In this document: positions 1,503 to 64,000 of the stretch, piece by piece
Layout of the letters: every line of letters starts with the position of its first letter
Position numbering within the stretch: position 1 is the first letter of the stretch
Source: a virus
Virus record (IMG/VR): IMGVR_UViG_3300024255_000001
DNA length: 64,000 nt
Strand: one strand, 5' to 3'
Position numbers and translations under genes: made by a program
Notes under the pieces: model-generated
The model's input: only the letters and a program-made list of their open reading frames with translations
Databases searched by the model: none
What the model was told of the DNA's origin: nothing

Positions 1503-1507
1503 AGTTC

Positions 1508-2146
1508 TTATACTGATTCTTTAGTTTTTGTTTGATGTTTCTTTAAGTCTTTTACCACGTCTTTACGAACTGTTTCTAAATACTTCTTTCTCTTTGCTGT
1601 AGAAACGAATGGCACAGACCAAAATTGTTTAGTCTTAGTCCATAAACTTGCTCTCCAACCGAAGACAAATGTAAATACTCCCATTACTAATCTAAGTTTA
1701 GGAGAGTTCAAATAAAGCATTCTAACGGGCAGGGCAGGTGCACCATGTGTTATATAAGTTCTTACCTTTTTGTCGTTTAGAAACGGTTTGGGATATGCAT
1801 ACGGACCTACCACTGGTACAAATTGATATGCATAACCTGGAGTGAGTACTTCATCGAAGAAGATCTCCATTCTTGGCGTTAATCTAAACCACCATACTGG
1901 TGAGACAAAGTAAATACGATCTGCCCATTTAACTAGTTCTTTATACTTGTCAATTAAATCTGTTCTAGGCCTAGCAAAACTATCTCTATATAGATCGATA
2001 ACTTCAATTTCATTTAGATAGCCATCCTCTTCTAATAGAGTTTTCTTAATCGTCTTAAATATACCGTTGTAACAGAATGATTTCTCATCTGGATGTCCAA
2101 CGACTATTAAGTTCTGCATTCTTTCTTTCTTCTTACAAATTGCCAT
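1508..2146 (-). CDS. flavodoxin-like NAD(P)H oxidoreductase (Flavodoxin_2 family)
   Basis: GHPDEKSF, IDLY, WADRIYFVSPVWW...FFDEVLTPGYAY; true start may be the second Met. Confidence 0.8.
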   Translation of the reverse strand: MAICKKKERMQNLIVVGHPDEKSFCYNGIFKTIKKTLLEEDGYLNEIEVIDLYRDSFARPRTDLIDKYKELVKWADRIYFVSPVWWFRLTPRMEIFFDEVLTPGYAYQFVPVVGPYAYPKPFLNDKKVRTYITHGAPALPVRMLYLNSPKLRLVMGVFTFVFGWRASLWTKTKQFWSVPFVSTAKRKKYLETVRKDVVKDLKKHQTKTKESV

Positions 2147-2147
2147 T

Positions 2148-2576
2148 TTATTTTAATAAATTTAAGAGCCAAGAGCTCGATTGTATTTTATCTCCTAGAC
2201 CATCTACCAATTCTATTCCAAGCTCTTTACAAATTTGAGCTTCTGGTATTGAGTGGTTATTCTGGTCTCCGCCGTTTGCAAACATAAATTTACGGTGGTG
2301 TGTATTATTATTTTTAACTATATCTTCAATAGTCTTACAAACTGTTTTATCATGATCGATCGATATAAAGGCTTTATCAACTACTCTTAATGAGCTGACA
2401 ATTTTTAGTCTCTCGTTTTCATCTTGAAACGCAGCAGAACCTTTCATATCCCTCTGTAGATCTGAGTTAACAATAACCCAAAGTTGGTCACCGCATTTTT
2501 TAGCATTCTCAAAATACTCAATGTGACCCTTATGGATTGGATTAAAATATCCACTAACGATTACTACTCTTTGCAT
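2148..2576 (-). CDS. HIGH-family cytidylyl/adenylyltransferase
   Basis: SGYFNPIHKGH, VIVNSD, FANGGD, KIQSSS motifs. Confidence 0.85.
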   Translation of the reverse strand: MQRVVIVSGYFNPIHKGHIEYFENAKKCGDQLWVIVNSDLQRDMKGSAAFQDENERLKIVSSLRVVDKAFISIDHDKTVCKTIEDIVKNNNTHHRKFMFANGGDQNNHSIPEAQICKELGIELVDGLGDKIQSSSWLLNLLK

Positions 2577-2818
2577 TAGGGTGTATTTTCTGGTGCGGCT
2601 TGCACTTCTAGAATTTTATTGTAAGTTATTATATCATTTTCTTTTGTCCAAGCTTTCCAGTGCTCCACGTATTTCATAGCCTCGGCTTTACCGCTGCCTG
2701 GAGTTATCCCCCATTTAATAAAACGTACTGCATCTAATACGTCTTCTAAGTGTAGTCTTTCATAAGCCTCTTCCATGGTTTGTGGCCTATCATCATAATG
2801 TTCGTGGAGTCCCATCAT
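2576..2818 (-). CDS. hypothetical protein
   Basis: 80-aa ORF coupled to its neighbours. Confidence 0.55.
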   Translation of the reverse strand: MMGLHEHYDDRPQTMEEAYERLHLEDVLDAVRFIKWGITPGSGKAEAMKYVEHWKAWTKENDIITYNKILEVQAAPENTP

Positions 2819-2994
2819 AAAAATTTAGTATATTTAGTTAATTCTTGTTTTCTTGCTTCTTCTAATCTCTTTGCATGATATTCTTTTGCATACTGCTCCA
2901 TGATTTTACTCATTTGAGTGTAATGTGAAAATGCATCACTGTCGACAGCCAAATCTGGCCATTCGTTTTTATCTAGCCAATCCGCCGCGCTCAT
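2815..2994 (-). CDS. small hypothetical protein (59 aa, MSAADWLDKNEWPDL...)
   Basis: Manual translation; fills the gap and has an ATGA overlap with the downstream gene. Confidence 0.55.
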   Translation of the reverse strand: MSAADWLDKNEWPDLAVDSDAFSHYTQMSKIMEQYAKEYHAKRLEEARKQELTKYTKFL

Positions 2995-3805
2995 ATAAAT
3001 ACTCTCCTAAATCATCTCTACTTGTTGGTACATCATCCCATTTTGAATCATACCAGAACGTTCTACCATTTCTATCCTTTCTCTTTGACATTTCGGCATT
3101 ACCATAACACAACATAAACCGCTCCTGGATAGCTTTATCTCCAAATGGATTATCCCAATCCTTAATGCTTCCGCCACCTTTAGCATACGCTAGAAGTGGA
3201 ATATCACGGCATAGATCTAGTAGTTTAGGGTATCTTGCGAATTGCATGCCTGCTGGTAAGAATGGATCTACATCACCAGCTCTATAAATAATTTCTGCTC
3301 TTAGGTAATTGCCAATCCCATTAAAATAATTTTGGTCCATTAACATTTCATAAAGCGGCTTCTTTAGTTTAGTCAAGTTAGTCATGACTTTATCCCAAAA
3401 TGCTTTATACTCTGTTGTTGGATCTGGACCTCTATTATCAGACCATGCTACACCCTGTTTCCACTTGCCGAAACGTCTGACATCTACAAAGGACATTGTA
3501 GTACCATCAGATCTATAAAATTTTAGGTGCGAATGTTTTGGCTCTTGTCCAGAATTGGTCAGTTTAAAATGCCCGGACATACCCATCGTGATTCTTACAG
3601 GGATGTATTGGTCTGAATGTTTATCTAAAAAGTAAAGTACCATTTCTTTACCTTTAGAAACTGCTTTAATTTTAAATGTTTCAAATGGAATATTAAGGTC
3701 CTCGCATTTATGGATTGGATTCTTCTCCACTCTCACGTAAGTTTGGTCTTCTGATACTTGATTGACGTAGTCTGCTGTAAATTTGAGTTCCGCTAACTCT
3801 GGCAT
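2969..3805 (-). CDS. nei: Fpg/Nei DNA glycosylase/AP lyase, NEIL1-like (zincless finger)
   Basis: N-terminal MPE, MGMSG, FVDVRRFG, H2TH FNGIGNYLRAEIIYR, DRNGRTFW without a four-Cys zinc finger. Confidence 0.9.
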   Translation of the reverse strand: MPELAELKFTADYVNQVSEDQTYVRVEKNPIHKCEDLNIPFETFKIKAVSKGKEMVLYFLDKHSDQYIPVRITMGMSGHFKLTNSGQEPKHSHLKFYRSDGTTMSFVDVRRFGKWKQGVAWSDNRGPDPTTEYKAFWDKVMTNLTKLKKPLYEMLMDQNYFNGIGNYLRAEIIYRAGDVDPFLPAGMQFARYPKLLDLCRDIPLLAYAKGGGSIKDWDNPFGDKAIQERFMLCYGNAEMSKRKDRNGRTFWYDSKWDDVPTSRDDLGEYLYERGGLAR

Positions 3806-5216: not shown

Positions 5217-5302
<86 letters not shown>

Positions 5303-10956: not shown

Positions 10957-11514
10957 TTATGCTAATTCTTCTGAATAAGTATCACATCTCCAAACAACAT
11001 CCATTGCTACTGCATCTTGTGTTTCGTAATTTAGATCTGCGTTTAAGTTTACACCTGATGTAATGAAACAGTCATCTAAAGTTACTTTTCTGTAAATGTC
11101 ACCTTCTCTATTGAATTGTACAACAACAATAGTACCTACATAGTTCTTTTTAAGACCCATTTCGCCAGTTTCAGGATTGTAAGCTGCTCTGTACCATTGT
11201 CTTAATGTTTTATATATGTATGCTTGGTTTGAATCGTTCAAGTTTAGAGAGAAATTGATTGTTACATCAACTACTGTCGATCCCGGCATTCCGGCAAACG
11301 ATCTTTGAGCAAACTTATACTTTTGTTCAACTGCAGCTAATTCAACACTAAGTCCATCTAAACCAGAGATTGAATTAACTTGTTGTAAGAGTAACTCTGC
11401 ACCAGTTACACCTGCTGGAGGTAATAATGTTACCTCAAATAGGTTACCTTGTACTGGTTCGAAATTCCTACCTTTCTTTTGAGTTTGGTCCTCTGAATAA
11501 TGTGGTAAAGCCAT
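10957..11514 (-). CDS. gp19: tail tube protein (gp19-like)
   Basis: 185 aa after the sheath; FEPVQGNLFEV...LRQWYRAAYNPETG..GLKKNY. Confidence 0.8.
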   Translation of the reverse strand: MALPHYSEDQTQKKGRNFEPVQGNLFEVTLLPPAGVTGAELLLQQVNSISGLDGLSVELAAVEQKYKFAQRSFAGMPGSTVVDVTINFSLNLNDSNQAYIYKTLRQWYRAAYNPETGEMGLKKNYVGTIVVVQFNREGDIYRKVTLDDCFITSGVNLNADLNYETQDAVAMDVVWRCDTYSEELA

Positions 11515-11536
11515 ATCTTTTATTTCTTATTTTATT

Positions 11537-11544
11537 TATATATC
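11537..11544 (-). promoter_or_regulatory. putative late promoter GATATATA
   Basis: Octamer upstream of the tube gene. Confidence 0.65.
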
Positions 11545-11553
11545 GTTATTTTA

Positions 11554-14406
11554 TTATGCAAAGTTACCTGTTGCGATCTCTCCTGTATTTAATACAGTTA
11601 CCCTAGATACTAGAATCTCAAGACCTTTAACTGGTTCAACGAATGTATCAAGAATACCCATGTTGTTATCGATCACCTCAGTTGTGTTGTTTGAAGTGTC
11701 CATAAGGTTCTTGTAGTCGTATACACCACCATCTTTCTTAACTGATTCCATAAAGTTATCAGCTAAAGTTTTGATTTCTAATCTAGTTTGAGCTGTATTA
11801 AACTCGAACAGATAGTTTTTAAGAATTTCAGCTAAACCATCTTCAATATAGATAAGAACTTCTCTTACGTGTGCTGAAGATAAGGCTGATTGAATTCCTT
11901 GCTGTGCAGTTTTATTACCTTTGATTGTTAAACCAACGCCTCTTTCAAATACGATTGGGTTGTAACCAAATGGTTCAAGTACATCTCTATCATTCTTATC
12001 GAATGAGAATTCTAAAGATTGAACACCTGTTCCACCTACAACACCTCTTCTTGGGCCTGCGATGATTGACCATGGTAATGCATCTAAATATTTGTCAATA
12101 TAGTTATTTGATACGTAAGCTGCTGGTGGAATAACTTTAGTTCTACCGTTCTCAATTACGTTAAGACCAGGACCGTAGTAGAATGCATAGTTTGCACCTT
12201 CATTGATCGATGGTAATGTGTAAAGAGCTGTTGGGTTTAACTCTAAGTTACCTCCTGTTGCAACGTTATTCACGTCAAATGCACCAGTGATAGCATTTAA
12301 GAATGATGGGTTTGTAGAAGCTTTTAATTCTTTCACCATTGGTGCGTTAAGAATTGCAGAAGCGTTCTGTCTTTCTTTACATAAGAATGATAATTCTTCT
12401 TTGTTTAAGATTCCACCGTTCTCTAATGAACCGAATGTATCAACTACATATCTAAATGTAATATTATCTTTATCTACTAAAGCGTTACCTAAACCAGTAC
12501 CTGGCTTAATTGCTGATAGTAATTCTGCAATACTTTTTGCAGTTTGAGTTGCTCCTTCTAATGGGAATGTCTTATAGAATCCACCTGCATCCTCATATCT
12601 CTTAAGAGAGTATGATGGTCTTGAAGAAACTGCTCTATGTGTTTCAAATCTGTAGTAAGTAGTTCCGTTAACAACAGTTTTAACGATCTTTTTAATTCTA
12701 GATAGTTTACCACCGTCACCTGGTACATACATACCTACTTTAATATCTGAATTCCAAGTTGCATCATTTGAACCTGATAATGTGAAGATACCTGCACCGT
12801 TATCAGTAAATGTCCATCCTTCTGATAATGTTGGGAACATTTCTGCTCTTGCATTTGGAGTTAACGTCCATACATCAAATGATGTATTAATACCCGCAAA
12901 GAAAGCTGTTAATGAATTACCAACACCGCCGTATTGAGTACTAAATGAAAGTCCACCTGCACATGAGATTGTTAATGCACCATCTTCTACAGAAACATTT
13001 GAGATAGCAACATACTCACCAGCGTTAACTGATTCTAAGAAGTTACCAACTACAATTGATTCGTAAGATGTTGGTGTTGCATCAACTACAATATTACCAT
13101 CTTCATTAACAATAAAGTTAGCGTTAGATGCCCATGGAGCTGGAGTACCTGGATTAAATTTTTCATAAGATTTTGAAATAGCACCAGAAGCAACGATTGT
13201 TACTTGACCTTCACCATTTGCACCCGAACCAGTATTAGTGATACTTTCGATCTTAACATATTCACCTCCAACATAAGCTTCTAAGTATTTAGAATCTGTA
13301 ATACCATGTAAAGAGGATAAGTTAGCTGCACTTAAAGCAGGATCGTTACCTTGGATGGTTAATGTTGAACCAGCAACTGATACGATACCAGCTTGTGCTG
13401 TTAAATCTACGATAGATTCTGCAGCTACTTGCTTCACTTTATGAGAAAGAATCTCATAATCTTGGTAGATGTCAAAGTTGTTACCTACTAGATCAATTTG
13501 TGGAAGTGCATCTTCTTGTACTGCACAGAATAAACCAGTTCTTCTAGCCTCCATATTAATTAGAGTCTCGATATACATTTGGTTACCTTCTGCATCAATA
13601 AATTCAGGAATTAATGATACACCATTATATTGTGCTAACAGAGTTACTTCTCTTAAACCAGCAAACTTAGCGAATTCTGATTTTAATAACCCGTCTTGAG
13701 TAAAGTAGTTTCCGTAGTTTGGATCGTTATTTAATTCAGCAGCGTCAAACTTGCCTTTAAATACAAATACATCTACTAGGTAATCTGATACGTACTCATC
13801 TGCATCAATACCTTCTGGAATATTTGATTCACCATACCATTCTCTTGCTGTTAATTCAAAACCTCTAACATCTCCAGCTTGTCTAATGATAACTGTGATT
13901 GGATCTTGTTTGATATTAACAAATGAGATTGCGTGGTTTGTGTCTTCTGCAGCAGCAGATAAAAGTTTTTCATCTGAAGGATTCCAAAACTTGTCTGTAT
14001 CAAATACAGCATTAAATTGCTTTGAAGCAGCATTTGATGCTTGTAATGAATTAGCTGATAAACCTTCTTGTGATGAGTTAGTTGCTGGAGAGAAAATTGA
14101 TACTCTATCAGCAGCATCTGCACCAGTTAGGTTTAATGCTAGAATAGGACCTCTAGATAAAGCCTCGATAGCTGATCTGTGGAAGAACATTCCTTTCTTT
14201 TCTAACGACTTGTCTACACCACCGAAAACTTGCTTGAATTGTTCTACATCTTCTACTAATACTGGAGTATTGTAAGGACCCTTTTTAGATCTACCTACAA
14301 CTAGTCTAATAGTTTCTGCAGGGATGTTAACAGTCTGTGATTTGTCAAACTCTAAGCGATATACGCCCGAGCTTTTGAACTGTAATAATTGAGGACTTAA
14401 TGCCAT
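11554..14406 (-). CDS. gp18: contractile tail sheath protein (gp18-like)
   Basis: SSGVYRLEFD, GRSKKGPYNTPV, PWSIIAGPRRG, GNKT, HVRE, FEFNT motifs; large central insertion. Confidence 0.92.
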   Translation of the reverse strand: MALSPQLLQFKSSGVYRLEFDKSQTVNIPAETIRLVVGRSKKGPYNTPVLVEDVEQFKQVFGGVDKSLEKKGMFFHRSAIEALSRGPILALNLTGADAADRVSIFSPATNSSQEGLSANSLQASNAASKQFNAVFDTDKFWNPSDEKLLSAAAEDTNHAISFVNIKQDPITVIIRQAGDVRGFELTAREWYGESNIPEGIDADEYVSDYLVDVFVFKGKFDAAELNNDPNYGNYFTQDGLLKSEFAKFAGLREVTLLAQYNGVSLIPEFIDAEGNQMYIETLINMEARRTGLFCAVQEDALPQIDLVGNNFDIYQDYEILSHKVKQVAAESIVDLTAQAGIVSVAGSTLTIQGNDPALSAANLSSLHGITDSKYLEAYVGGEYVKIESITNTGSGANGEGQVTIVASGAISKSYEKFNPGTPAPWASNANFIVNEDGNIVVDATPTSYESIVVGNFLESVNAGEYVAISNVSVEDGALTISCAGGLSFSTQYGGVGNSLTAFFAGINTSFDVWTLTPNARAEMFPTLSEGWTFTDNGAGIFTLSGSNDATWNSDIKVGMYVPGDGGKLSRIKKIVKTVVNGTTYYRFETHRAVSSRPSYSLKRYEDAGGFYKTFPLEGATQTAKSIAELLSAIKPGTGLGNALVDKDNITFRYVVDTFGSLENGGILNKEELSFLCKERQNASAILNAPMVKELKASTNPSFLNAITGAFDVNNVATGGNLELNPTALYTLPSINEGANYAFYYGPGLNVIENGRTKVIPPAAYVSNNYIDKYLDALPWSIIAGPRRGVVGGTGVQSLEFSFDKNDRDVLEPFGYNPIVFERGVGLTIKGNKTAQQGIQSALSSAHVREVLIYIEDGLAEILKNYLFEFNTAQTRLEIKTLADNFMESVKKDGGVYDYKNLMDTSNNTTEVIDNNMGILDTFVEPVKGLEILVSRVTVLNTGEIATGNFA

Positions 14407-26808: not shown

Positions 26809-28962
26809 TTACTTTTTAAATCTTTTCTTTAAGCTTTCAGCGTAGCTAGACACATCGTAAAGTGGCTCGTTCTTCTTCTCAGCAACTGCTGATTCGTTAA
26901 CGGGAGCTAACTTTTCTAGGTCAACTTTTACCTCTCTTAGATCTCTAGTTTCCCAGAAGTTTCTAACTTGATACTCAGTTTTTAGAGTATGGTATTTTGA
27001 TTGAGCTTTGATTTGATTTTGTTTAGACTCAGAAAGAGCTTCGAACTTTTCTTTGTACTCTGCAGGAGCTGCAGTGATAAAGAATGGTTCAGCTGTTTTA
27101 GCTTCTACAACTGCTTCAGCAGATTCAACGATTGCGTTGATTTCGCCCTCAGTCATAAAACCTCTTTTAGCAACTCTTTGTCTAACTTCAGTTTTAGCAT
27201 CTTCGTTTAGAGCGTTATATTTATCTTGAGTTGTGCTAGATACAACTTTAAAGAATGATGGATTTTCATTTTCTTTAACTTGTGCAGCCTCAACTAGAGC
27301 GTCTAACTTAGATGAAATTTCTTTTTTGTAAGTATCTAAAGCAGATTCTTCAACTTCTTCAGTTTCTTCAACTTCTTCAGTCTCTTCAACCTCTTCAGTT
27401 TCTTCAACTTCTTCAGTCTCTTCAACTTCTTCAGTTTCTTCAACTTCTTCAGATTCTTCAACTTCTTCAGTTTCTTCAACTTCTTCAGTCTCTTCAACTT
27501 CTTCAGCTTCTTCTTCAGTAACTTCGTCTTCAACTACTTCTTCAGCACCTTCGCCAGCTTCGTCTTCTTCTTCAACTTCTTCAGTCTCTTCAACTTCACC
27601 TTCTTCGTGATGTGCTTCTTCAGTTTCTTCAACTTCTTCAGTTTCTTCAACTTCCTCAGTTTCTTCAACTTCCTCAGTTTCTTCAACTTCTTCAGTTTCT
27701 TCAACTTCTTCGCCTTCTTCTTCGACTACTTCTTCAGCACCTTCACCAGCTTCGTCTTCTTCAGCAACTTCTTTAGTTTCTTCAACTTCAGTAGCTTCTG
27801 TTTCTTCAACTTCTTCTTCAGCAACCTCTTCAGTTTCTTCAACTTCTTCTTCAGTTACTAAGTTTTCGTTAATTTGAGTAGCAATATATTCTGCATACTC
27901 AGAAACGTTCTGTAGATTTTCTTTCAAATACTCTACATAAGATAATAAGTTCTCAGAAGTTTCAGTACCTTCATTATATTGTTCAGCCAAATAGTTAGAA
28001 AAATCTTTAACTTTGCCAACAGCTTCAGCTAAATGCTCAGAGTATTGAATACCTTGATCTAATTTTTCTGCTACATTTTCTGTATATGAAATACCTTGAT
28101 CGGCTTTTTCAGCTACATGCTCTGTATATTGGATTGACTCGTCTAATTTGCCAGCTAAATACTCTACGTATTCTGAGAGAGTATTAACGCGCTCGACGAT
28201 GTGGTCGTTATGAGACTTTACGCTCTCTAACGTGTTATCTTCGCTATTCGCTCCGATAGACTCTTTAATGCCTTTAATTTCGTTAGCTAAGTACTCAGAA
28301 TACTTGTGGAAATCTTCAGCCTTTACAAATTCTGCCATGTTTTTATTATTATTTGTTTCTATATTGGTTTCTGTAATTTCTTGTGCTACTTCAGGAGCTT
28401 CTACGCGACCGCCGTTCATTTCGTAGATCCATAGGCCTGAGTTATCATCAAAGCCATAAGATTCATTTACTCTCTTTAACTCAGCATTAGCGAATCCAGG
28501 ATCTGCTACTAAGTCATAAGTAAATAATTGCTTGATTTTAACTTTACCGTTAGATTCAACGGCACCAGCTGCTCTAGAAGAGATTTGTAAAGGTACTCCA
28601 GCATCAACAAGAGCTTTAGCTTGTCTACCAGCATCAGTATCTAAAAGTCTAATTTTACCTTTAACTTGTTTGTTATCTTTGTCGTAATAAAGTTCTTCAA
28701 TAATGTGTGAAACATTCTTAAGAGAAACATCAAACTGTTGTGGGTGATCTAATTCACCTAATAGTTTAGAAGATTTAATCTTATCTTGTAATTGCTGAAT
28801 TTGAGGAACATACTCATCTTCAGTGTAGATACGATTATTTTTATTCTTGGAGTCAATTTCTCCGAAGATACCTTCTAGAATGTACTCTTTGTTTTCACCT
28901 TCAGCTACTTTTAACTGAGATGAAGACATTTCTACGATCAATAAGTCGTTTTTGTTTGCCAT
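26809..28962 (-). CDS. gp21: prohead protease (gp21) fused to acidic scaffold/core domain (gp22-like)
   Basis: LEGIF, KNKNNRIY, LGELDHP, VSH, ISSRAAG, YDLVADPGF; followed by helical repeats and a Glu-rich region. Confidence 0.9.
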   Translation of the reverse strand: MANKNDLLIVEMSSSQLKVAEGENKEYILEGIFGEIDSKNKNNRIYTEDEYVPQIQQLQDKIKSSKLLGELDHPQQFDVSLKNVSHIIEELYYDKDNKQVKGKIRLLDTDAGRQAKALVDAGVPLQISSRAAGAVESNGKVKIKQLFTYDLVADPGFANAELKRVNESYGFDDNSGLWIYEMNGGRVEAPEVAQEITETNIETNNNKNMAEFVKAEDFHKYSEYLANEIKGIKESIGANSEDNTLESVKSHNDHIVERVNTLSEYVEYLAGKLDESIQYTEHVAEKADQGISYTENVAEKLDQGIQYSEHLAEAVGKVKDFSNYLAEQYNEGTETSENLLSYVEYLKENLQNVSEYAEYIATQINENLVTEEEVEETEEVAEEEVEETEATEVEETKEVAEEDEAGEGAEEVVEEEGEEVEETEEVEETEEVEETEEVEETEEVEETEEAHHEEGEVEETEEVEEEDEAGEGAEEVVEDEVTEEEAEEVEETEEVEETEEVEESEEVEETEEVEETEEVEETEEVEETEEVEETEEVEESALDTYKKEISSKLDALVEAAQVKENENPSFFKVVSSTTQDKYNALNEDAKTEVRQRVAKRGFMTEGEINAIVESAEAVVEAKTAEPFFITAAPAEYKEKFEALSESKQNQIKAQSKYHTLKTEYQVRNFWETRDLREVKVDLEKLAPVNESAVAEKKNEPLYDVSSYAESLKKRFKK
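27345..27853 (-). repeat. degenerate 18-bp tandem repeat encoding (EETEEV)n
   Basis: Repeated ttcttcaacttcttcagt units; EDEAGEGAEEVV block duplicated. Confidence 0.9.
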
Positions 28963-29024: not shown

Positions 29025-29378
29025 TTAGACGCCTGCTAATGGGTCTTCTTCTCCGCCACCAGCATCTGCTTCGGCTTCTTTCTCTTCTTCCTTCTCTTGC
29101 TCAGCGTCCTCTGCCGATTTATCTAAATAATATGCTACTAGAACATCCATCTCACCTTCTGCGAAAGCATCTACTCCATACTCTGCATAGAAGTACTCTT
29201 TAAATTCGCCCTCTGTTTTAGAAGAAGTAATAACTCCTAATATTTCAGCGGATTTGATTGTAGGGCCAGAATCTAATTTTAAGTCTTCGACATAAATTTT
29301 AGAGTCTTCACCTGCCTTCATAGCATCCTCTGCTATAAAATCTTCAAAGGTTTTAATTATTTTAAAATCGTTTTTCAT
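29025..29378 (-). CDS. acidic prohead core / internal protein
   Basis: Between portal and protease; N-terminal IKTFEDFIAE resembles the T4 capsid-targeting sequence; GATATATA at 29383-29390. Confidence 0.55.
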   Translation of the reverse strand: MKNDFKIIKTFEDFIAEDAMKAGEDSKIYVEDLKLDSGPTIKSAEILGVITSSKTEGEFKEYFYAEYGVDAFAEGEMDVLVAYYLDKSAEDAEQEKEEEKEAEADAGGGEEDPLAGV

Positions 29379-55498: not shown

Positions 55499-57217
55499 TT
55501 ATAGTGGCCAAATCATGGATGTGCCTGCATCATACCATTCACTATACCACCCTTTTTTATTAAGTTCCTTTTCCCACTTGTTATCTACACCAAACGTTCT
55601 GTTCTTGTAGTCTTCAGAGTAGTAGTCATAAATTACTCTACCCTTATACTCGTCCATATTTTCACCTGAAACCCAGATACCACCTTGAGAACCGTTAAAC
55701 TCTTCAGTAGTTCTTACAAAGTCCATATACTTTTCGATCCACTTAATCATAGCATCTCTATCCAGTTTCTTTTCGGTAACCAATGATTCTGCAAATGCTT
55801 CAATATCCCATTGAATTCTTTGCATTACATCTTCACCTCTAAATTCTTTCTTAGCCCATTGTAATAGACCTGGTTCATGTTTAGCATTTTGTGCCATATC
55901 GAATGCATTCTTCCAACCATCATTAGAAGCTACATCTTCAATCCATTGATCGTATTTCTTTCTATTCCATCTTACTGTCTTAACAGCTTTCTTGTGTGGT
56001 CCGTCTCCTAATGTAGAAGTGGCAGCGTCATAAGAACCTGGAATAAAAACTCCTAAGTCTTTACCGTCACCATATTTAATCTCTTTTCTAAATCTTCTTA
56101 AAGAATATTCACCACCTTCAATTTGCTTTCTTCTTGAAACTTCTCCCTGAGATGTACCGATTGCAATCTTCATATCTTCAGCTTTCTTTGGATCAGTTTC
56201 AAAATGTAAATCTCTTACTGCGTTTTCAAGTAAGGCCTCTTCATAAATTTTGGAGTCTGTCGCCTCTGACATCATTTCCTCTTGAGCGAACTTGTTATAC
56301 TCTTTTGACCACTTCTTCCATTCAGCATCAGTAGCATAGTCTTCTAATACATCGACTACATCTTTATTACCTTTTTGTTCGATAACTTGATCTGCAATCC
56401 ATCTACCTGCTTTTGCGTTTAAGTAGTAAAGTGCTCCGGCATCAGAGAATTTGTAAGCTTCAGTTAACCATGCCATTGCAGAATGCCAACAGTCTTCAAT
56501 ATCTTTACGTCTAAAACCAGCAGTATCTAATGTACCCCAAAAACCATAGGATTCATTAACATCATCAATTGAATATTGATTTTTCTTACCAAACTTAAAT
56601 GCCTCGCTAACCAATGATTCACTTACAAATAAATTAAACTGTGTATATAGATTAAAGTTTTCCATCTCTAATTTCTTTTTTGTTTTATCTTTCTTAGTCT
56701 CTTCCTCGTCATCATCAATATCTGCGACAGCAGGAACATCACCAGAACCTACACCACCATCAGAAGGTAGAACCACAGGGCCCATACCGCCTATATTAGC
56801 ACTAGGTGTAATATTTTGTGCTGCAAGTGCAACATTTTCATCTACTGCAACACCTCGCTTTTTTAAGATCTTTTCAATTTCTTGGTAAGCTTTCTTGTAT
56901 TCCGATTTAGAGTAGTGCATTCCTTTAGCATAGTTAGCATAACCATCTAATGCTCCATTATACATTCCTAGTAATTCTTCATCTGACATACTATTATTAA
57001 ATACAAACGGGCCAATAAATGCTTCATCTACCGTCTCTGGTAAATTATCATGTTTTGTTGAAGCGTATTTCTTTAGATCTTTCTTTGTCATTTCGTCTGA
57101 TAATGATTTTACTTTGTCTCTGTAAGCTGGGTCGATGTCTGAGATTTCCATGTCGCCGGATTTAACAGCGTATGCCATTCCCATTAATCTTTGTTGTGAC
57201 TTACTTACAGAAGGCAT
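55499..57217 (-). CDS. modular protein with N-terminal DUF3008-like domain, probable internal head polyprotein
   Basis: MPSVSKSQQRLMGMAYAVK...ASTKH; repeated VDE/VSE/VNE/LLE/VTE linkers. Confidence 0.55.
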   Translation of the reverse strand: MPSVSKSQQRLMGMAYAVKSGDMEISDIDPAYRDKVKSLSDEMTKKDLKKYASTKHDNLPETVDEAFIGPFVFNNSMSDEELLGMYNGALDGYANYAKGMHYSKSEYKKAYQEIEKILKKRGVAVDENVALAAQNITPSANIGGMGPVVLPSDGGVGSGDVPAVADIDDDEEETKKDKTKKKLEMENFNLYTQFNLFVSESLVSEAFKFGKKNQYSIDDVNESYGFWGTLDTAGFRRKDIEDCWHSAMAWLTEAYKFSDAGALYYLNAKAGRWIADQVIEQKGNKDVVDVLEDYATDAEWKKWSKEYNKFAQEEMMSEATDSKIYEEALLENAVRDLHFETDPKKAEDMKIAIGTSQGEVSRRKQIEGGEYSLRRFRKEIKYGDGKDLGVFIPGSYDAATSTLGDGPHKKAVKTVRWNRKKYDQWIEDVASNDGWKNAFDMAQNAKHEPGLLQWAKKEFRGEDVMQRIQWDIEAFAESLVTEKKLDRDAMIKWIEKYMDFVRTTEEFNGSQGGIWVSGENMDEYKGRVIYDYYSEDYKNRTFGVDNKWEKELNKKGWYSEWYDAGTSMIWPL

Positions 57218-57218
57218 A

Positions 57219-57773
57219 TTATTTTGCGTCTATTTGGATATATTCTGAATCTCTGATTTCAAGATTATTATTACCAACTTGGCTATCATATTCACCATAG
57301 ATAACATCCTTGCTATTTGCTAATGGAGAATTCATCATTCCAGTTTTATCAATCTTCTTGTATAACTTGTTACCGTTAACATCATCCGGGAAACCAACAT
57401 TAATTACCATCTCGTTGTACTTTGCGTAAGATATGTATAAAGCGCCAGAACCGTCTGAACTGTTTAATCCATTGATTTCATCAACTTTCCATTCTTCAGT
57501 TAAGTTAGCTGTTACAAATAATACTGACTCCATGTCTTTTGCTCCTTTTTCAACAGCATCTAAAATAATCTTTTCAGCATCTTTCTTAAAACCGCTCCAT
57601 TCTTTATTAACTTCTTTTAAAGTTGCAGCTGAATCTCCTTCATATTTAACTTTTGCAATTTCTTGTTTAAAGGCTTGCATTACTTTACCTATAATGCCTT
57701 TAGCCGCATAGATTCCTGTCATTCTATATGACTTTTCGTTTAAAAATTGTTCGAATGTTGGGATTGTTTTCAT
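57219..57773 (-). CDS. probable internal head protein
   Basis: N-terminal MKTIPTFEQFLNE. Confidence 0.55.
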   Translation of the reverse strand: MKTIPTFEQFLNEKSYRMTGIYAAKGIIGKVMQAFKQEIAKVKYEGDSAATLKEVNKEWSGFKKDAEKIILDAVEKGAKDMESVLFVTANLTEEWKVDEINGLNSSDGSGALYISYAKYNEMVINVGFPDDVNGNKLYKKIDKTGMMNSPLANSKDVIYGEYDSQVGNNNLEIRDSEYIQIDAK

Positions 57774-57785
57774 ATCTCTATTATA

Positions 57786-60344
57786 TTACCAAGCGTAATC
57801 GAATCCTTCGATTTTAGCTATTTTTTCTTTAAGTGATAAAGCGTAATTCTTAATCTCTCTTTTATACCAAGATTCAGATGAACCAAATCTTTTTTCAGAT
57901 TCTTCTTCTTGTCTAACATAATCACAATATCTAGAATAATCATCTAATATATTTGACATGTGATTAGAAGCATCTCTTAATTTAACCTCTTTTCCTTTTG
58001 CACTTTGACCAATTTTGATTTCATCGTATCTAGTCTTTTCACCACTAGCTAAACCTGTTTTAATTTGATCGGTTAACATATCGATTGCATCTGCTACCAT
58101 TTTATCTAATGGCATTGTTGCAGCCTTAGTAGATAAAATTTGGTGGTATCTGTCGTTGTTAGCTTTCTTAAAATCTTTATCATTAGTAAATGCAATTGCA
58201 CCTGATTTAGCTTCAGCTCTAGCTGCTCTTAATTGGTCAGTAGAATACTTTTGTCTAATTAGGTCTAGGTTAATAACAAGAACTCTATCAGAAACTTCTG
58301 CGATTCTTTTACCATTATTAAGTCCAGTTCCTGACCAGCCTCTGTATTTATGTGATACACCAACTTGGTCATCTTTACCTTTTTTACCGTCTTTCTTAAA
58401 TGCTCTATTTTGTGAGTATCTAGACCAGTCATTAGTATAAAATTCTCTATCGCCAGACATTGCTGCTATTAGAGTACCTCCACCTGGTATAGTTTTTAAA
58501 GCACCATAACCAGCATCATAAGGAGTATATGGATTTTCTTTTTCGTTATCAGATATAAAGAATAGTATATGTTTTGATCCACCATGTTCTTTAAACACCT
58601 TAGTTGGATCATTACTTATTACCATATCCTCATCACCTACTTTATCTAATGCAACTTTAGCTAATTGGTAAAAACCGCCAGCTAATTGCTTTAAATTTTG
58701 CTTACCGTATTTACCTTCTTTGTTACTCATTAGAACGCTAGCTAGTAAGCTGCTGCCTAATGCTTCGTTAAGAAAGTTAGCTCCAACGAAGTCGCTAAAT
58801 GACTCAAACAAGTTTATTTCGTTTTTCATATTTGTATTTGTATTTTCTTCTAGTTTTTTTGCGGCTAAATCTTTATCTCTTTTAGAAACATTATCTAAGT
58901 AGGAACCATCTCCCCAGAATTTAACAACTAATTCAGTTTGAGTAGTTGAATGCATGCCTGGTTTGTAGACTGCAATATCTCTTAGTTTTTTATTAGAAGC
59001 GATAGTTTTCTTCATAAAGTCTAGTGCTTGTTTCTCGTTTCTAAACTTTTTCATAGCACTTACGCCGTCACTATAAATAACTTCATAGTTTTCAGTAATT
59101 GCTGATTCTTCAACATGTAGATTTACATATCTGCTACCTTTTTCTGAGTAAACTGAAGTAATTTTAAAATCACCTTTAATTGATTTACCAGTATCTTGTT
59201 TGTAGTATTTAGCATAATAAGCTTTAAAGAATAAGTTTGGTTCTAGTTCTCCAAAGAAGTGTGACAGTTTACCTACATAAAATTCAGCTTTAGGATATAC
59301 TTTTAAAACATCTTTTTCTGTTTCAGCATCTAGAACTGCTTTATCAAATTCTTTTACAAATTTAGCTTCAGTAACTTCAGATTCTTTAACAACTAATTCT
59401 GCATCTATAGCTACTTCATGTGAAATAGTCTCTAAACCATTAATTAAAATTGTACCATCCTTTTGCATGCCGGTAACTTCACCAGAATCAAAAGGTTTTT
59501 TAGAACTTCTGCTTAGAATAGAAACTCTATCGCCTATTTTAAATTTAGCTTCAGTAACTGATTCATCAATACCTTTGTAAATTAAAGTGTCCCAATGAAC
59601 ATCCTGTACCTCGTCTCTATAATCAGCATATACGTCAACTTCCCAATTACCGCCTTCTTGATCTACTCCCATGAAATAAAGATCTTTACCCTCATTACCG
59701 TGGTCATCAATCGTATCATATTCGTCAAATTCTATTTCGTATTTCTTACCTTTATATTTAACAACAGCACTAGGCCAATCAGATTTTGTAACCTTAATCT
59801 TCTCGTTTACTACTGACTCTTCGATATACTCTCCAAGTTCTGGATCGTCCCATCCATCAGGAGATGCTAAAACTGATTGTAGATCTTCTCTTGAACCTGT
59901 TAGCTCAACTTCTGGCCAACCACTCGGTCCACTAGGATCTAAAACTTTCATTGTAACTTTATGTTTCTTTAAAAGTTTTTTAAGTATCTTTGATTTAGGA
60001 TCCATTGCATCCATAACTACTGTAGCTTCGAATACTTCAGCAGCTTTAGGAGTTTCATCTAGTTCAGCTAGAATTCTACGACCCCATTTTGAAAGCTTTA
60101 CACCCTCTTCAGAAACATTAAAGTACTTTCTATTTCTAGAAGTCCATTGGCTTGAACTAGTAGATAATTCAGAAAGAATCTTGTTAAACTCTTCTCTTGT
60201 CACTACACCGTCTTTAATAGCTTGTAGGACTGCATTTCTTACATTAGCAGTTTTACCTACAGTTTGAGCTGGGTGGTTCTCTGTATATTTTCTTTTGATT
60301 TGCAATTTCTTGCCTTCCGATAAAAAGTCTTCGAATTTCGTCAT
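57786..60344 (-). CDS. modular probable internal head polyprotein
   Basis: N-terminal MTKFEDFLSE; modules separated by ESVVNE, ESVTE, ESEVTE, ESAITE, FLNE. Confidence 0.55.
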   Translation of the reverse strand: MTKFEDFLSEGKKLQIKRKYTENHPAQTVGKTANVRNAVLQAIKDGVVTREEFNKILSELSTSSSQWTSRNRKYFNVSEEGVKLSKWGRRILAELDETPKAAEVFEATVVMDAMDPKSKILKKLLKKHKVTMKVLDPSGPSGWPEVELTGSREDLQSVLASPDGWDDPELGEYIEESVVNEKIKVTKSDWPSAVVKYKGKKYEIEFDEYDTIDDHGNEGKDLYFMGVDQEGGNWEVDVYADYRDEVQDVHWDTLIYKGIDESVTEAKFKIGDRVSILSRSSKKPFDSGEVTGMQKDGTILINGLETISHEVAIDAELVVKESEVTEAKFVKEFDKAVLDAETEKDVLKVYPKAEFYVGKLSHFFGELEPNLFFKAYYAKYYKQDTGKSIKGDFKITSVYSEKGSRYVNLHVEESAITENYEVIYSDGVSAMKKFRNEKQALDFMKKTIASNKKLRDIAVYKPGMHSTTQTELVVKFWGDGSYLDNVSKRDKDLAAKKLEENTNTNMKNEINLFESFSDFVGANFLNEALGSSLLASVLMSNKEGKYGKQNLKQLAGGFYQLAKVALDKVGDEDMVISNDPTKVFKEHGGSKHILFFISDNEKENPYTPYDAGYGALKTIPGGGTLIAAMSGDREFYTNDWSRYSQNRAFKKDGKKGKDDQVGVSHKYRGWSGTGLNNGKRIAEVSDRVLVINLDLIRQKYSTDQLRAARAEAKSGAIAFTNDKDFKKANNDRYHQILSTKAATMPLDKMVADAIDMLTDQIKTGLASGEKTRYDEIKIGQSAKGKEVKLRDASNHMSNILDDYSRYCDYVRQEEESEKRFGSSESWYKREIKNYALSLKEKIAKIEGFDYAW

Positions 60345-60346
60345 GA

Positions 60347-60760
60347 TTATTTTACTTTAATTTTTGCTTGGTGTCCATTAGTTTCAGTGTATTGAAATGA
60401 AAATTTAGACTTTGCAAATAAAGTACCCATTGTAAAAGAAACAAAAGTTCCTTCTGGGTTTTTCATTGCTACGTTATATGCGTCTCCAGCTGCAGCCTCG
60501 TCATCAAAAATACCGATAATATTCTTTGAAGTTGAAGATCCTATTCTAATTTCACCCTGTAGTCTAACAGATTGCCCATTAAAATCTACATTGTTATGTG
60601 CCATTAATAAATACTTAGTTGCACCCTTTTCTGGAAGGTTATCACTATGTTCTCCAAACTCGGTTCTTGTATTAAAGTAATATGAACCAAACGGTATGCT
60701 TTCATTTACTGCTTGATTTGAGCTTTCTCTAAAGCTTTCGAATGATTTTATATTTTTCAT
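60347..60760 (-). CDS. probable internal head protein
   Basis: N-terminal MKNIKSFESFRES...AVNES. Confidence 0.55.
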   Translation of the reverse strand: MKNIKSFESFRESSNQAVNESIPFGSYYFNTRTEFGEHSDNLPEKGATKYLLMAHNNVDFNGQSVRLQGEIRIGSSTSKNIIGIFDDEAAAGDAYNVAMKNPEGTFVSFTMGTLFAKSKFSFQYTETNGHQAKIKVK

Positions 60761-60779: not shown

Positions 60780-62639
60780 TTATATATTCTTTAAAAAATC
60801 ATCGAAGGTTAGGAATTCTGGTTGTGCAGATTCTGCAGCAACTCCCATCGAGTCTTCTAATTTCATTTTTAGTTCTCCGTACATACCATGTATATCCTTA
60901 GGAGTTAATTTCTTAAATAGTCTTTCATCACCATCAAGCATTGCGTTTCTAACCTGAGTTGCTGAGATATTCTTACCTGATCTTGGAATTTCAAATAAAC
61001 CAAAATCGTCTCTTACGCCTAGATCGTCTCTATATTCTTGTTTATCTGCTTGATAACTATAGACTTTCATTCTATCGGTTCCAGTTCCCCATAATACTGG
61101 CTCGTATTGCGGTCTTAATTCATTAAACATTTTATCAATTGCTGCAGTAGGTAAAATCTTTACATCTTCAATTGGATATGAAGATTTTAATTTTTGTAAC
61201 ATTGATAGTTGAGTATCTTCATCATAAGGTCTCTTAAATGCATCTTCTGCTTTCTTAGTTCTAGACTTAATTAAAAAGATAACTACTGGATAACCGTTTT
61301 GTTTATAGATAGTTTCAATAACTTTAGCATGGCCTAATGTAAATGGCTGGAATCTACCAACAAACATATTTACAGGCTTCTTACCTTGATCTTTATACTT
61401 AACAGTTAAGCCTTCCATGATTGGACTGACTTGAGCTGAAATTTTTTGGTTTAATAAATATTGTTTAAAATCCATTACGTCTGATTCATTTGCTTTTGCC
61501 ATTATTAAACCCTCAATGGTTTCAACGATCTCGTTGATCTGCTCCATTAAATCTTTATTAATAAGGTCAGTTTCTTTAGTTCTCTTTTTTCTAAAAGAGC
61601 CTAATACAATTTTAAATAACTCAGATAGTATCTTATCTTGTACTAAAGTAAGTGTCTTTTCGTTTTGAATAAACTTATTGTTTAATTCAAACATAGGAGA
61701 TTCAGAGAAGTCTGCGGAGTCAAATTTAGCACCAATATATTTTGTAGCATTTTTTTCTACATAATTATTAAAAATAGATGACATTAATTCTAAATATCTT
61801 CTATCTGTCTTTTCTTCTTTTAATTCTATTGATGAGAAATCAAATTGTGCTAAATGTTCTACAACATCTAAAATTGTAATTTGATACATGTCTGATGGTT
61901 TTCTTGGATCCATCTGTTTTTTATTAAACTTCTCTAATTTAAAAGATTGTAATTCTGTTCCGTCATGAAAATTAACAATAAACCCTGCAACATCTTTTGA
62001 AAGATCGTTCATTAAAGCAGATTGCTTCATATTCCCATTGAAAATACCGAATACTGTTCTTGTAAAGCTAGGCTTCTCAAAGTCTTCAAACGTCTGTTCA
62101 AATTCATTAACCGACATTGCAAGAATTTGTTTTAATCTATCCTTTTGACCTGAGTCAAGTTGACCTTCAAATAATATAGGTGGTTTTGAAACATTTAGTT
62201 TATTCGCCCACTTATTAAGTATCTTGGTATCTCTAATTACCTTTCTAACTTTATTAGGATTGGATGGTTGTAAAACTTGTATATGCGTTAAAATTAAATT
62301 TGATTCTGGTAAAACATCATACTCCACATCAATTGTTTTATTATCGCCAAGATATTCAAATCCAAACTTCCAGTCAAATGGCATATCTTCTATAACTTCT
62401 TTAGAAACAGACTTAAAGTGGCGAATTGCGTTCTCGTAGTATCTGACGATTGTACGATCTACTATATCCATTGGTTGCTTAGAACCAGATTTATAGTATG
62501 CAAAATCAGTACCTTGTCTTCTTGCATGAAAAGATGAACCGTTGATTTTCTCAGTCACAATACATTTGTGGCTAAGTAGTTTATCAACGTCTGCTGTGTT
62601 AGCTCCTTCGAAATATGTTTTTAAATTGTCTAATGCCAT
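60780..62639 (-). CDS. RNA-ligase-like domain fused to HIGH-family nucleotidyltransferase
   Basis: TEKINGSS (motif I), FGFEY, AGFIV, SFK; C-terminal GRFQPFTLGH, GTDR, ISATQVR. Confidence 0.7.
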   Translation of the reverse strand: MALDNLKTYFEGANTADVDKLLSHKCIVTEKINGSSFHARRQGTDFAYYKSGSKQPMDIVDRTIVRYYENAIRHFKSVSKEVIEDMPFDWKFGFEYLGDNKTIDVEYDVLPESNLILTHIQVLQPSNPNKVRKVIRDTKILNKWANKLNVSKPPILFEGQLDSGQKDRLKQILAMSVNEFEQTFEDFEKPSFTRTVFGIFNGNMKQSALMNDLSKDVAGFIVNFHDGTELQSFKLEKFNKKQMDPRKPSDMYQITILDVVEHLAQFDFSSIELKEEKTDRRYLELMSSIFNNYVEKNATKYIGAKFDSADFSESPMFELNNKFIQNEKTLTLVQDKILSELFKIVLGSFRKKRTKETDLINKDLMEQINEIVETIEGLIMAKANESDVMDFKQYLLNQKISAQVSPIMEGLTVKYKDQGKKPVNMFVGRFQPFTLGHAKVIETIYKQNGYPVVIFLIKSRTKKAEDAFKRPYDEDTQLSMLQKLKSSYPIEDVKILPTAAIDKMFNELRPQYEPVLWGTGTDRMKVYSYQADKQEYRDDLGVRDDFGLFEIPRSGKNISATQVRNAMLDGDERLFKKLTPKDIHGMYGELKMKLEDSMGVAAESAQPEFLTFDDFLKNI

Positions 62640-62647
62640 AATAGTTT

Positions 62648-63919
62648 TTATCTACCGTATTTAATAATGCCCATTAACTGGTTAATAGCGGCAAAAGTAC
62701 CCGTTAACTTGAATGTTTTACCATTGTATTTAAAGACTAGGCCTTCTGTTGGAATGATTGACTCAATACCGCCGATACCTTCTAGCCTCTTTAATTCTTT
62801 TTCTACCTTCTCAATCTGTTTTAGATCACCGTTCTTTTTAACTTTATCTGCCTCAGTTCTGATTTGCTTATGTAATCTTGCTTTCTCAGCTTCTGGATTA
62901 GCAGCAACAAAATTGGAAACGTTCTTTAAAACATCTGCACCTAATTCTAAAAATAGGTTCTCGAAAGGTAGAATGTTTTCTTTATACTTCTTGTTTCTTT
63001 GACCATCAAAATCTTTGACGGCTTTTGCTTGTTCTGGAGTAACTGCATTCTTTAATTCTCTCATATTTAGAGTCTTCTTGTCTAAATATGCCCATCTTAA
63101 TAAGAGTCCCTCTTTTAATACTGAGTCTAAATCTCCAAAGTTCTCTTCGATTTGGTTTCTCCACCACATCTCGTGATACATTTTAACCTCATCTTGATCT
63201 GATAGACTATAAGTATCTCTCAGTTTATTTATCGCCTTTTCGTAATAGCCGACTCTATCATCAAAGTTAATGTCTTTTCCTAACTTTAAAATTTGAGGGG
63301 GAATTATTGTAAACGTATTTTGCACATCCGCTTTTAGCTCTTTAAGTGCTTTAACTATTTCTGATGCGATATTCTCTTCACCTATGATATTACCCTCACC
63401 ATCAGTAACTTTCATACCGTGGAATTGAATAACATCTCTGTCATAATAAATTACATTAGGGTTTTTAGAGTAAATTAACTCCATATTGATAAAAGACTTA
63501 CCATCTTGGAATACAGATTGGTCCTTAAGCTTTGGGAGTGCGTCTGCTAGGTCTTTAGCAGCAAAGATGAATGTTTCTTCAACCAGCTTCGAAGCGTGGC
63601 CAGTGAACATCTTAATGATACCATTTAAGTCGAGTGGATTGGCTAATTGTCCCTTATTTCTAGCGAACATAGCATTACCATCCTTTACAGTTGCAAATAC
63701 ATTCTGACCATCTGTCTTTTCAGTTGGTGCCTCTTCAAAATCAAGACCTCCTTGTAGTGCAGATCTTACAATAGTTTTAAAATCAGCAAATGTTAATGAG
63801 TGGTCATCGAATGGATGCATCATGTGGCCAGCGGCCCCACCTTCAAATACGAAATTGTCCAAGTTATTGACCTGGACTTTCTCGCTTAAGAATTCTTTAA
63901 ATGTATATAGTTTCTTCAT
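62648..63919 (-). CDS. RNA-ligase-like nucleotidyltransferase (GGAAGHM family)
   Basis: N-terminal MKKLYTFKEFLSE; GGAAGHMMHPFD, TEKTDGQN, NMELIY, EGLVF, FKLTG. Confidence 0.65.
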   Translation of the reverse strand: MKKLYTFKEFLSEKVQVNNLDNFVFEGGAAGHMMHPFDDHSLTFADFKTIVRSALQGGLDFEEAPTEKTDGQNVFATVKDGNAMFARNKGQLANPLDLNGIIKMFTGHASKLVEETFIFAAKDLADALPKLKDQSVFQDGKSFINMELIYSKNPNVIYYDRDVIQFHGMKVTDGEGNIIGEENIASEIVKALKELKADVQNTFTIIPPQILKLGKDINFDDRVGYYEKAINKLRDTYSLSDQDEVKMYHEMWWRNQIEENFGDLDSVLKEGLLLRWAYLDKKTLNMRELKNAVTPEQAKAVKDFDGQRNKKYKENILPFENLFLELGADVLKNVSNFVAANPEAEKARLHKQIRTEADKVKKNGDLKQIEKVEKELKRLEGIGGIESIIPTEGLVFKYNGKTFKLTGTFAAINQLMGIIKYGR

Positions 63920-63938: not shown

Positions 63939-64000
63939 TTATCCTAACGATGATTGTAATGCACCAACTGCTGCACCATAGTCACCGTCGTGTTTAGTTA
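63939..64000 (-). CDS. C-terminal end of a gene starting beyond the window
   Basis: ...TKHDGDYGAAVGALQSSLG-stop. Confidence 0.4.
   Translation of the reverse strand, partial: TKHDGDYGAAVGALQSSLG

Follow-up and report, generated by a model that had tools for sequence, protein, structure and literature searches.

Two adjacent genes in a 64,000-nucleotide stretch of viral DNA (IMG/VR record IMGVR_UViG_3300024255_000001; this whole stretch is called the window below) encode proteins, here named gpA and gpB, whose structure models both show RNA-ligase folds. We propose, with a probability of about one half, that the pair is the split form of a widespread phage-only module that would be loaded into the head and injected as an RNA repair kit. 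The proposal builds on what can be observed directly in the genes and models, namely the folds, the conservation of the catalytic motifs, the adjacency of the two genes, their fusion in relatives, the similarity of the gpA N-terminus to the capsid targeting sequences of phage T4, and the prohead protease gene in the same window. The window is of the marine T4-like jumbo myovirus type, and its genes all lie on the minus strand. The two genes and their parts are listed here, pLDDT standing for the predicted local distance difference test score of the models.

62648-63919, minus strand: gpA, 423 amino acids, the same open reading frame (ORF) as in the initial annotation
63881..63919, minus strand: gpA residues 1-13, capsid targeting sequence of the T4 type (MKKLYTFKEFLSE), which shares the aromatic-aromatic-aliphatic-Glu spacing of T4 IPIII
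63842..63880, minus strand: gpA residues 14-26, disordered spacer ending in VFE before GGAAGH; E26 and GGAAGH are conserved
62648..63841, minus strand: gpA residues 27-423, RNA-ligase-type nucleotidyltransferase module (AlphaFold2, Foldseek, VIA and motif conservation)
60780-62639, minus strand: gpB, 619 amino acids, again the ORF of the initial annotation; 8 bases separate the end of gpA from the start of gpB
61911..62639, minus strand: gpB residues 1-243, Rnl2-like nucleotidyltransferase domain with degenerate motifs (Foldseek, VIA and clade alignments)
61497..61910, minus strand: gpB residues 244-381, helical domain, assigned from the model; VIA matches the beginning of this domain to the C-terminal domain of T4 Rnl2
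61413..61496, minus strand: gpB residues 382-409, disordered linker (pLDDT below 50 for 382-408)
60840..61412, minus strand: gpB residues 410-600, HIGH-superfamily adenylyltransferase with GRFQPFTLGH and ISATQVR (PF01467, TIGR00125 and VIA)
60780..60839, minus strand: gpB residues 601-619, C-terminal tail with the tag-like LTFDDFLKNI (conservation among homologues)

gpA has the fold and the conserved motifs of an RNA ligase

The initial annotation had placed a ligase motif I in each of two adjacent ORFs, and both assignments held, with K68 in TEKTDGQN of gpA and K31 in TEKINGSS of gpB. Besides motif I (K68xDG), gpA carries motifs Ia (R87), III (E147), IV (E392-G393 in EGLVF) and V (K404). These positions were compared in a distant set of 150 gpA-family representatives with pairwise identity of no more than 50%. 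K68/D70/G71, R87 and E147 were each retained in 149 of them, E392 in 147, G393 in 149 and K404 in 148, and the motif IV and the motif V lysine that had been read from the window sequence are thus near-invariant.

The AlphaFold2 model of gpA, for which an alignment of 48 diverse family members was the input, had a mean pLDDT of 88.9, with disorder confined to residues 1-30. When the model was searched with Foldseek against the Protein Data Bank (PDB), the best match was the ligase domain of fungal Trl1 (E 6e-4), followed by T4 RNA ligase 1 (Rnl1), archaeal Rnl3 and T4 RNA ligase 2 (Rnl2). VIA, a second structure aligner that is independent of Foldseek, gave Z scores of 9.0 for NgrRnl of Naegleria, 8.3 for trypanosome REL1, 8.2 for Trl1, 7.7 for T4 Rnl1 and 7.5 for T4 Rnl2, with 183-203 residues aligned in its top matches, and the top matches of both programs were RNA ligases throughout. 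A weak hhalign alignment with T4 Rnl2 put K68 on the motif I EKIHG, R87 on R55 and E147 near E99. gpA has no OB domain, since the chain stops one short helix past motif V; a helical insert of ~160 residues (about 219-381) lies between motifs IIIa and IV, and a conserved GGAAGHxxHPFDD element stands upstream of motif I. The insert also showed a weak likeness to ribosomal protein eS6 (E about 1e-3), which was discarded as apparently compositional.

Searches with family models did not place gpA: it matched no model of Pfam, NCBIfam, PHROG or PADLOC, the Pfam RNA ligase models PF09414 and PF09511 included (E <= 0.1), and neither single-sequence nor profile searches of the PDB sequences retrieved a ligase. 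Sub-threshold matches to PF09414 (RNA_ligase) were detected in 11 of 48 gpA relatives, the best with an E value of 0.0027. The family itself is large, as an exhaustive HMMER search collected 1812 cluster representatives at E <= 0.001 (clusters at 50% identity), and its neighbours in the ESM Atlas were 98-100% viral; judged from this and from a scan of prokaryotic genomes (see below), it looks phage-only. DUF6267 (PF19782) appeared among the language-model and structural neighbours of gpA in the ESM Atlas (TM 0.67-0.77). It was considered as gpA's own family and rejected, the DUF6267 hidden Markov model having no matches in gpA, in gpA relatives or in the related phage records, and it is probably a sister family only. 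Our literature search found no mention of DUF6267, nor of DUF5661, which occurs in some gpA-family polypeptides (see below).

gpA has in common with the ATP-dependent RNA ligases NgrRnl/Rnl5 (5cot), REL1 (1xdn), Trl1 (6n0t), T4 Rnl1 and Rnl2 the fold, the order of the motifs and the absence of an OB domain. It is unlike them in carrying the helical insert between motifs IIIa and IV, where the others have a C- or N-terminal accessory domain, and also in the absence of a library model, the GGAAGHxxHPFDD element, the restriction to phages, the usual fusion to a HIGH domain and the capsid-targeting leader. From the model and the conservation of the motifs, we infer that gpA very probably works as a ligase-type enzyme, of a family without a match in Pfam, NCBIfam, PHROG and PADLOC.

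gpB combines a degenerate Rnl2-like domain with an NMNAT-like adenylyltransferase

The AlphaFold2 model of gpB (mean pLDDT 82.8) has three parts, with a disordered linker joining an Rnl2-like ligase domain to the HIGH nucleotidyltransferase. Foldseek matched the ligase-like domain to T4 Rnl2 (2hvr, E 3.2e-8), and VIA aligned 194 residues with 2hvq at a Z score of 11.3, model residues 1-316 running alongside Rnl2 residues 6-300. Structure prediction and both aligners thus assign RNA-ligase folds to the two proteins, one of them degenerate. The likeness of gpB to T4 Rnl2 (gp24.1) extends to motif I, where TEKINGSSF resembles REKIHGTNF of Rnl2; unlike Rnl2, gpB has unconserved catalytic positions, does not match PF09414 and is fused to an adenylyltransferase. 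Motif IV of gpB had been described as degenerate (AGFIV), and A218 indeed occupies the acid site, the motif assignments being topologically right; K31 and K234 are present. We aligned 120 marine and 120 megaphage homologues and recorded the residues at the three catalytic sites:

Motif I Lys (31): K in the window; marine homologues K112/R7; megaphage homologues D119/E1
Motif IV acid (218): A in the window; marine homologues D60/S30/A29; megaphage homologues E120
Motif V Lys (234): K in the window; marine homologues K95; megaphage homologues E119

The motif I lysine, in the motif that the initial annotation had read in both proteins, is therefore not conserved in the gpB family. Because neither clade keeps the full catalytic set, the gpB ligase-like domain probably does not act as a standard ligase. 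Distant gpB relatives were reached with a megaphage homologue as the query, two earlier locus searches having yielded close ones only. The gpA and gpB ligase-like domains do not appear to be recent paralogues, since neither BLASTP nor hhalign with the family profiles showed sequence similarity between them. The gpB stretch EGLTVKY (residue 409) was examined as a counterpart of gpA motif IV and rejected, as it belongs to the linker and is missing in stand-alone relatives. Such stand-alone homologues of the gpB ligase-like domain, 440-457 amino acids long, are encoded by the megaphages LR756501, LR756502, LR756504 and LR745206 (loci L106-L109); their motif I Lys is replaced by Asp and they lack the adenylyltransferase, and ~1500 proteins of this kind are found in metagenomes. 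The divergent neighbour of the stand-alone gene is an ATP-dependent DNA ligase gene in LR756504, and in LR756502 the gene adjoins a weak Pol-beta nucleotidyltransferase-like gene.

The C-terminal domain had been recognized from its motifs as resembling nicotinamide mononucleotide (NMN) adenylyltransferase (NMNAT) and cytidylyltransferase enzymes, and an NMNAT-like fold was borne out by profile matches, by AlphaFold2 and by the two structure aligners. Residues 425-565 matched PF01467 (2.8e-8; 34.5 bits against a cut-off of 21), and the generic model TIGR00125 was passed with 36.7 against 27.7. The curated NMNAT equivalog models, with cut-offs ranging from 127 to 409, were not reached (26.2 against 181.2 for TIGR01527 and 27.3 against 127 for NF002243). 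In VIA, residues 420-600 matched NadM (2qjt) and the archaeal M. jannaschii NMNAT (1f9a) equally, each with a Z score of 14.0, the latter with a root-mean-square deviation of 2.7 over 154 residues; in these model comparisons NadM and archaeal NMNAT are the nearest relatives of the gpB HIGH domain. With them (2qjt, 2qjo, 1f9a) it shares a Rossmann-like HIGH fold, GRFQPFxxGH, ISxTxxR and a similar size, and TLGH and ISATQVR are invariant within the gpB family. It departs from them in scoring far under the curated thresholds, in an ELR aligned with SIW of the archaeal enzyme, in a family-specific EPVLWGTGxDR block and in its ligase-type partner domains. The ELR assignment comes from a low-confidence HMMER alignment with M. 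jannaschii NMNAT, in which the DxxFN segment also aligns. The Trp of the archaeal SIW stretch presumably stacks on the nicotinamide ring.

The two genes are linked, and many relatives carry both domains in one chain

gpA and gpB homologues were adjacent and in the same order at each of the 23 IMG/VR loci, including those with gpB identity as low as 48%, as well as in LR756500. Locus L015, in which the gene gave no continuous translation, was excluded. The spacing is 8 bases except at two of the 23 loci (L016 and L017), where ~1.1-1.3 kb of extra DNA lies between the genes. A HIGH motif of the GRFQPF type was present in the same polypeptide in 105 of the 150 gpA-family representatives, usually on the N-terminal side and in the reverse order in three, and Pfam CTP_transf_like was confirmed in 23 of 42 long family members. 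Microcystis phage Mel-JY01 (PP395634), which is in culture, encodes a direct fusion of 639 amino acids at 11243-13162, a few genes upstream of the terminase gene. Since so many gpA relatives carry the HIGH domain in the same chain, the window pair is best described as the split form of a common phage fusion, and the co-occurrence of the two genes in related phages was borne out.

Further domains found in gpA-family polypeptides are a class II CCA-adding/poly(A) polymerase head with an RNA-binding domain, HD, an AAA_33/Zeta-type P-loop kinase, 2H phosphoesterase, DUF5661 and ROS/MucR. All but the last two commonly accompany RNA ligases in the repair of RNA ends (PMC7824862), and fusion to a CCA-adding enzyme, HD, a Pnk-like kinase and 2H phosphoesterase therefore points to RNA-end repair. 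Of the roles listed in the initial annotation, RNA or tRNA repair is the one that these fusion partners support; NAD regeneration and protein nucleotidylation are less well supported. Prediction of a complex between gpA residues 23-423 and the gpB adenylyltransferase domain (residues 405-619) returned a score of 0.00, which gives no verdict and is not evidence either way.

gpA and neighbouring genes begin with T4-type capsid targeting sequences

In the T4 genome record, IPII and IPIII begin with MKTYQEFIAE and IPI begins with MKTFKEF. When TFKEFLSE of gpA is set against TYQEFIAE and TFKEF in the IPIII register, its positions 4, 7, 8 and 10 are aromatic, Phe, aliphatic (Leu) and Glu, respectively. 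For IPIII, the ten N-terminal residues are enough for packaging, with residues 4 and 7 important for targeting and residues 8 and 10 for processing (PMC9026906). Residues 1-13 of gpA have pLDDT below 50 and lie in the disordered leader outside the fold. The pattern [FY]xxF[LIMV]xE occurred within the first 20 residues of 4 of the 61 minus-strand ORFs, whereas the interior of the proteins gave 6 matches in ~18,700 residues, an N-terminal enrichment far above chance. It was retained in 113 of 115 gpA orthologues, and the gpA tag is also present in the LR756500 homologue; tag conservation in orthologues extends to a 462-kb phage. gpA and three neighbouring genes begin with such a sequence, and they are clustered in one block. 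A hydrophobic-x-Glu directly before GGAAGH is conserved in gpA and recurs at internal domain borders of fused relatives; VFE (E26) is possibly a second prohead-protease site of the hydrophobic-x-Glu type, at which gpA would be cut.

The initial annotation had assigned capsid-targeting-like signals to both proteins. This was upheld for the N-terminus of gpA; gpB has no N-terminal tag, and carries instead two conserved tag-like segments, one within the disordered linker (residues 391-397) and the other C-terminal (612-618). In these segments Asn replaces Glu, the linker segment being F391xxY394-L395. T611 and F612 are invariant and F615 nearly so, and [LMIV]TFxx[FY] was found within the last 15 residues of 98 of 113 gpB homologues. 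Just ahead of the adenylyltransferase stands I-x-E409, with E409 and L411 invariant in 19 sequences, and this may be a further prohead-protease cut.

The other tagged or tag-like ORFs and the protease gene are as follows:

60347..60760, minus strand: gp137, tag-like N-terminus (MKNIKSFESFRES); next gene downstream of gpB, which it also follows in closer relatives; no family match
57786..60344, minus strand: gp852, large protein with the tag MTKFEDFLSE, encoded downstream of the pair and conserved in that place
57219..57773, minus strand: gp184, tagged protein (MKTIPTFEQFLNE)
29025..29378, minus strand: ORF of 117 amino acids with KTFEDFIAE near its N-terminus, a near-exact T4 IPII/IPIII tag, between the portal and protease genes, the site of the T4 prohead core proteins gp67/gp68
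26809..28962, minus strand: prohead core serine protease of the T4 gp21 type (Peptidase_S77; PF03420, 8e-13; phrog_207)

The major capsid protein encoded in the window is of the Gp23 type (PF07068, 3e-45). The resemblance to T4 IPI, IPII, IPIII and Alt covers the spacing of the leader and the presence of a gp21-type protease and a gp23-type capsid protein in the genome. T4 Alt has propeptides at both ends (PMC9026906), and its C-terminal propeptide is a T4 parallel for the C-terminal tag-like segment of gpB. T4 internal proteins serve in counter-defence (PMC9026906, PMC3012670). The putative cargo described here differs from them in consisting of enzymes of the nucleic-acid repair type. We know of no enzymes of this type among the T4 head cargo.

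Genomic setting of the pair

The ORF at 63941-64000 (minus strand) stops 17 bases before the gpA start codon and runs off the end of the window, which shows that the operon of tagged genes extends upstream past the window end. The large proteins gp852, gp184 and gp572, encoded as a block just downstream of the pair (55499-60344, minus strand), belong to no known family. The C-terminal third of gp852 is conserved in every relative, and gp572 has DUF3008 at its start and an internal FNLFVSE behind an acidic linker. The prohead protease ORF encodes 717 amino acids, of which residues 22-138 match Peptidase_S77, and T4 gp21 has 212; unlike T4 gp21, the protease may be fused with a scaffold-like region.

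The window also encodes a tail sheath protein, large terminase, portal, ribonucleotide reductase and DNA polymerase. Its sole tRNA gene is for tRNA-Ser (UGA), at 5217-5302 (minus strand). A run of metabolic and repair genes at 1029-3805 (minus strand) comprises guanylate kinase, a flavodoxin-like reductase, a small RfaE-II-like adenylyl/cytidylyltransferase (142 amino acids) and an Fpg/Nei-type DNA glycosylase. Relatives are plentiful in ocean metagenomes, with contigs of up to ~250 kb, and more distant ones occur in the uncultured phages LR756500-LR756508, of 460-735 kb. A scan of 185,579 prokaryotic species genomes detected only 18 gpA-family loci, each in a metagenome-assembled bin and spread over many unrelated phyla, from which no reliable host can be deduced; the closest contigs (84% identity) are in a Flavobacteriaceae bin.

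Discussion

What we propose for the pair concerns its enzymatic activities, substrate, packaging, cleavage and role in infection. gpA would become adenylylated on K68, hand the AMP to a 5'-phosphate end and join this end to a 3'-OH. The decayed Rnl2-like domain of gpB would most likely still bind broken RNA ends or nicks, and its NMNAT-like domain would move AMP from ATP onto a phosphate-bearing acceptor. The N-terminal tag of gpA and the tag-like segments of gpB would direct the proteins into the prohead scaffold core, where the gp21-type protease would trim tagged proteins after Glu; the mature enzymes would then leave the head together with the DNA and mend RNA in the cell, most plausibly tRNA cut by host defence nucleases, ahead of phage gene expression.

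Two known kinds of system come close to this proposal. T4 Pnkp and Rnl1 repair tRNA, and gpA relatives similarly combine end-healing, CCA-adding and sealing domains; the difference is that T4 expresses both enzymes from its genome after entry. The fused gpA relatives are multidomain proteins of 600-1900 amino acids and 2-5 domains with genes near virion genes, and in this they may be comparable to the polyvalent injected proteins; a search within the polyvalent-protein paper (Iyer et al. 2017, PMC5512222) turned up no passage that puts an RNA-ligase-type or HIGH domain in such proteins. In the passages retrieved from a jumbo-phage survey, Rnl1, Rnl2 and RtcB are the only ligases named, and HIGH NMNATs appear as fusions with Nudix or kinase domains.

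Several observations weigh against a head-loaded repair kit. A canonical T4 Rnl1-family ligase gene lies near a small AAA_33 (Pnk-like) kinase gene in two of five related contigs, the two genes being a few kb apart (G003:C1:7847-12727 and G006:C1:140149-143553, IMG/VR contigs), which indicates that relatives of this phage also hold a conventional RNA repair pair; since that pair is already present in some of them, the need for a second repair route would have to be explained. The window has no kinase or phosphoesterase for end healing that is linked to gpA and gpB, and a scan with the T4 late promoter consensus (TATAAATA) found no site inside the cluster within the window, the operon extending past it. 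NMNAT-type chemistry has, to our knowledge, no step in RNA ligation. One way to give it such a step, which we regard as a long shot, is that gpB is a lysine-independent two-domain ligase injected with gpA: its NMNAT-like domain would adenylylate the 5'-phosphate RNA end directly to AppRNA, as NMN is converted to NAD+, and the decayed Rnl2-like domain, for which the Lys would be dispensable, would carry out only the sealing step. This would be a route of RNA ligation not described before.

It is also conceivable, though fairly unlikely, that gpA and gpB are ordinary cytoplasmic enzymes that are never packaged, the shared terminal motif serving co-assembly, regulation or a shared chaperone. The absence of an N-terminal tag from gpB and of a late promoter consensus from the cluster is consistent with this, as is the different amphipathic leader with which most fused relatives start. 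However, the tag agrees with T4 IPI-III at all four functionally mapped positions (PMC9026906), it recurs on four genes of one block and on the small ORF between the portal and protease genes, it is kept in nearly all orthologues within a leader outside the fold, and a gp21-type protease is encoded. An unlikely alternative is that the gpB C-terminal domain is a true NMNAT that rebuilds nicotinamide adenine dinucleotide (NAD+) after NAD-depleting defences, with ligase-type domains that use or sense NAD+ or NMN, for instance as an NAD-dependent ligase whose NMN product is recycled. Its best structural matches and its GRFQPF..GH and ISxTxxR signatures would fit such an enzyme, and HIGH NMNAT systems are known in jumbo phages (PMC7824862). 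A related contig that is ~61% complete has a Nampt-like (NAPRTase family) gene (G004:C1:134398-135177), and a gpB homologue is its only HIGH (PF01467) domain found, so a role in NAD salvage is conceivable and this gene also counts against RNA repair. On the other hand, only one of five related contigs has a Nampt-like gene, those contigs being incomplete; the equivalog scores of ~26 bits are set against cut-offs of 127-409, ELR aligns with SIW of the archaeal enzyme, and the fusion partners are RNA-end enzymes rather than NAD-salvage enzymes.

The remaining explanations change the target of the chemistry. Rnl2- and Rnl5-type enzymes seal duplex nicks, and an injected ligase might act on nicks or breaks of the entering phage genome, or on RNA-DNA hybrids; DNA ligases do appear lower in the fold lists, and the stand-alone gpB-like gene lies beside an ATP-dependent DNA ligase gene in one megaphage. 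We consider DNA repair quite improbable, given that gpA lacks an OB domain, that all top fold matches are RNA ligases and that the fusion partners are tRNA- or RNA-end enzymes. More improbable still is an offensive effector whose nucleotidyl-transfer domains adenylylate host proteins or RNAs and thereby disable them. Injected T4 proteins such as Alt modify host targets (PMC9026906), and the gpB ligase-like domain is hardly a standard ligase; yet the ligase motif set of gpA is complete, down to motifs III, IV and V of the sealing steps, and companion domains for CCA addition and end healing are more in keeping with repair.

If the repair-kit proposal is correct, a large phage-only RNA-ligase-type family (~1800 clusters at 50% identity) without a Pfam, NCBIfam or PHROG match would be added to those known, together with a systematic and so far unexplained coupling of that family to an NMNAT-like adenylyltransferase. 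These would be the first nucleic-acid repair enzymes carried in a phage head and injected with the DNA, and the T4 internal-protein idea, so far one of inhibitors and ADP-ribosyltransferases, would come to include repair chemistry. A direct test is feasible, as Mel-JY01 is a cultured carrier of the fused form. The proposal, if correct, would also suggest that abundant marine T4-like phages face RNA-cutting host defences from the first moment of infection.

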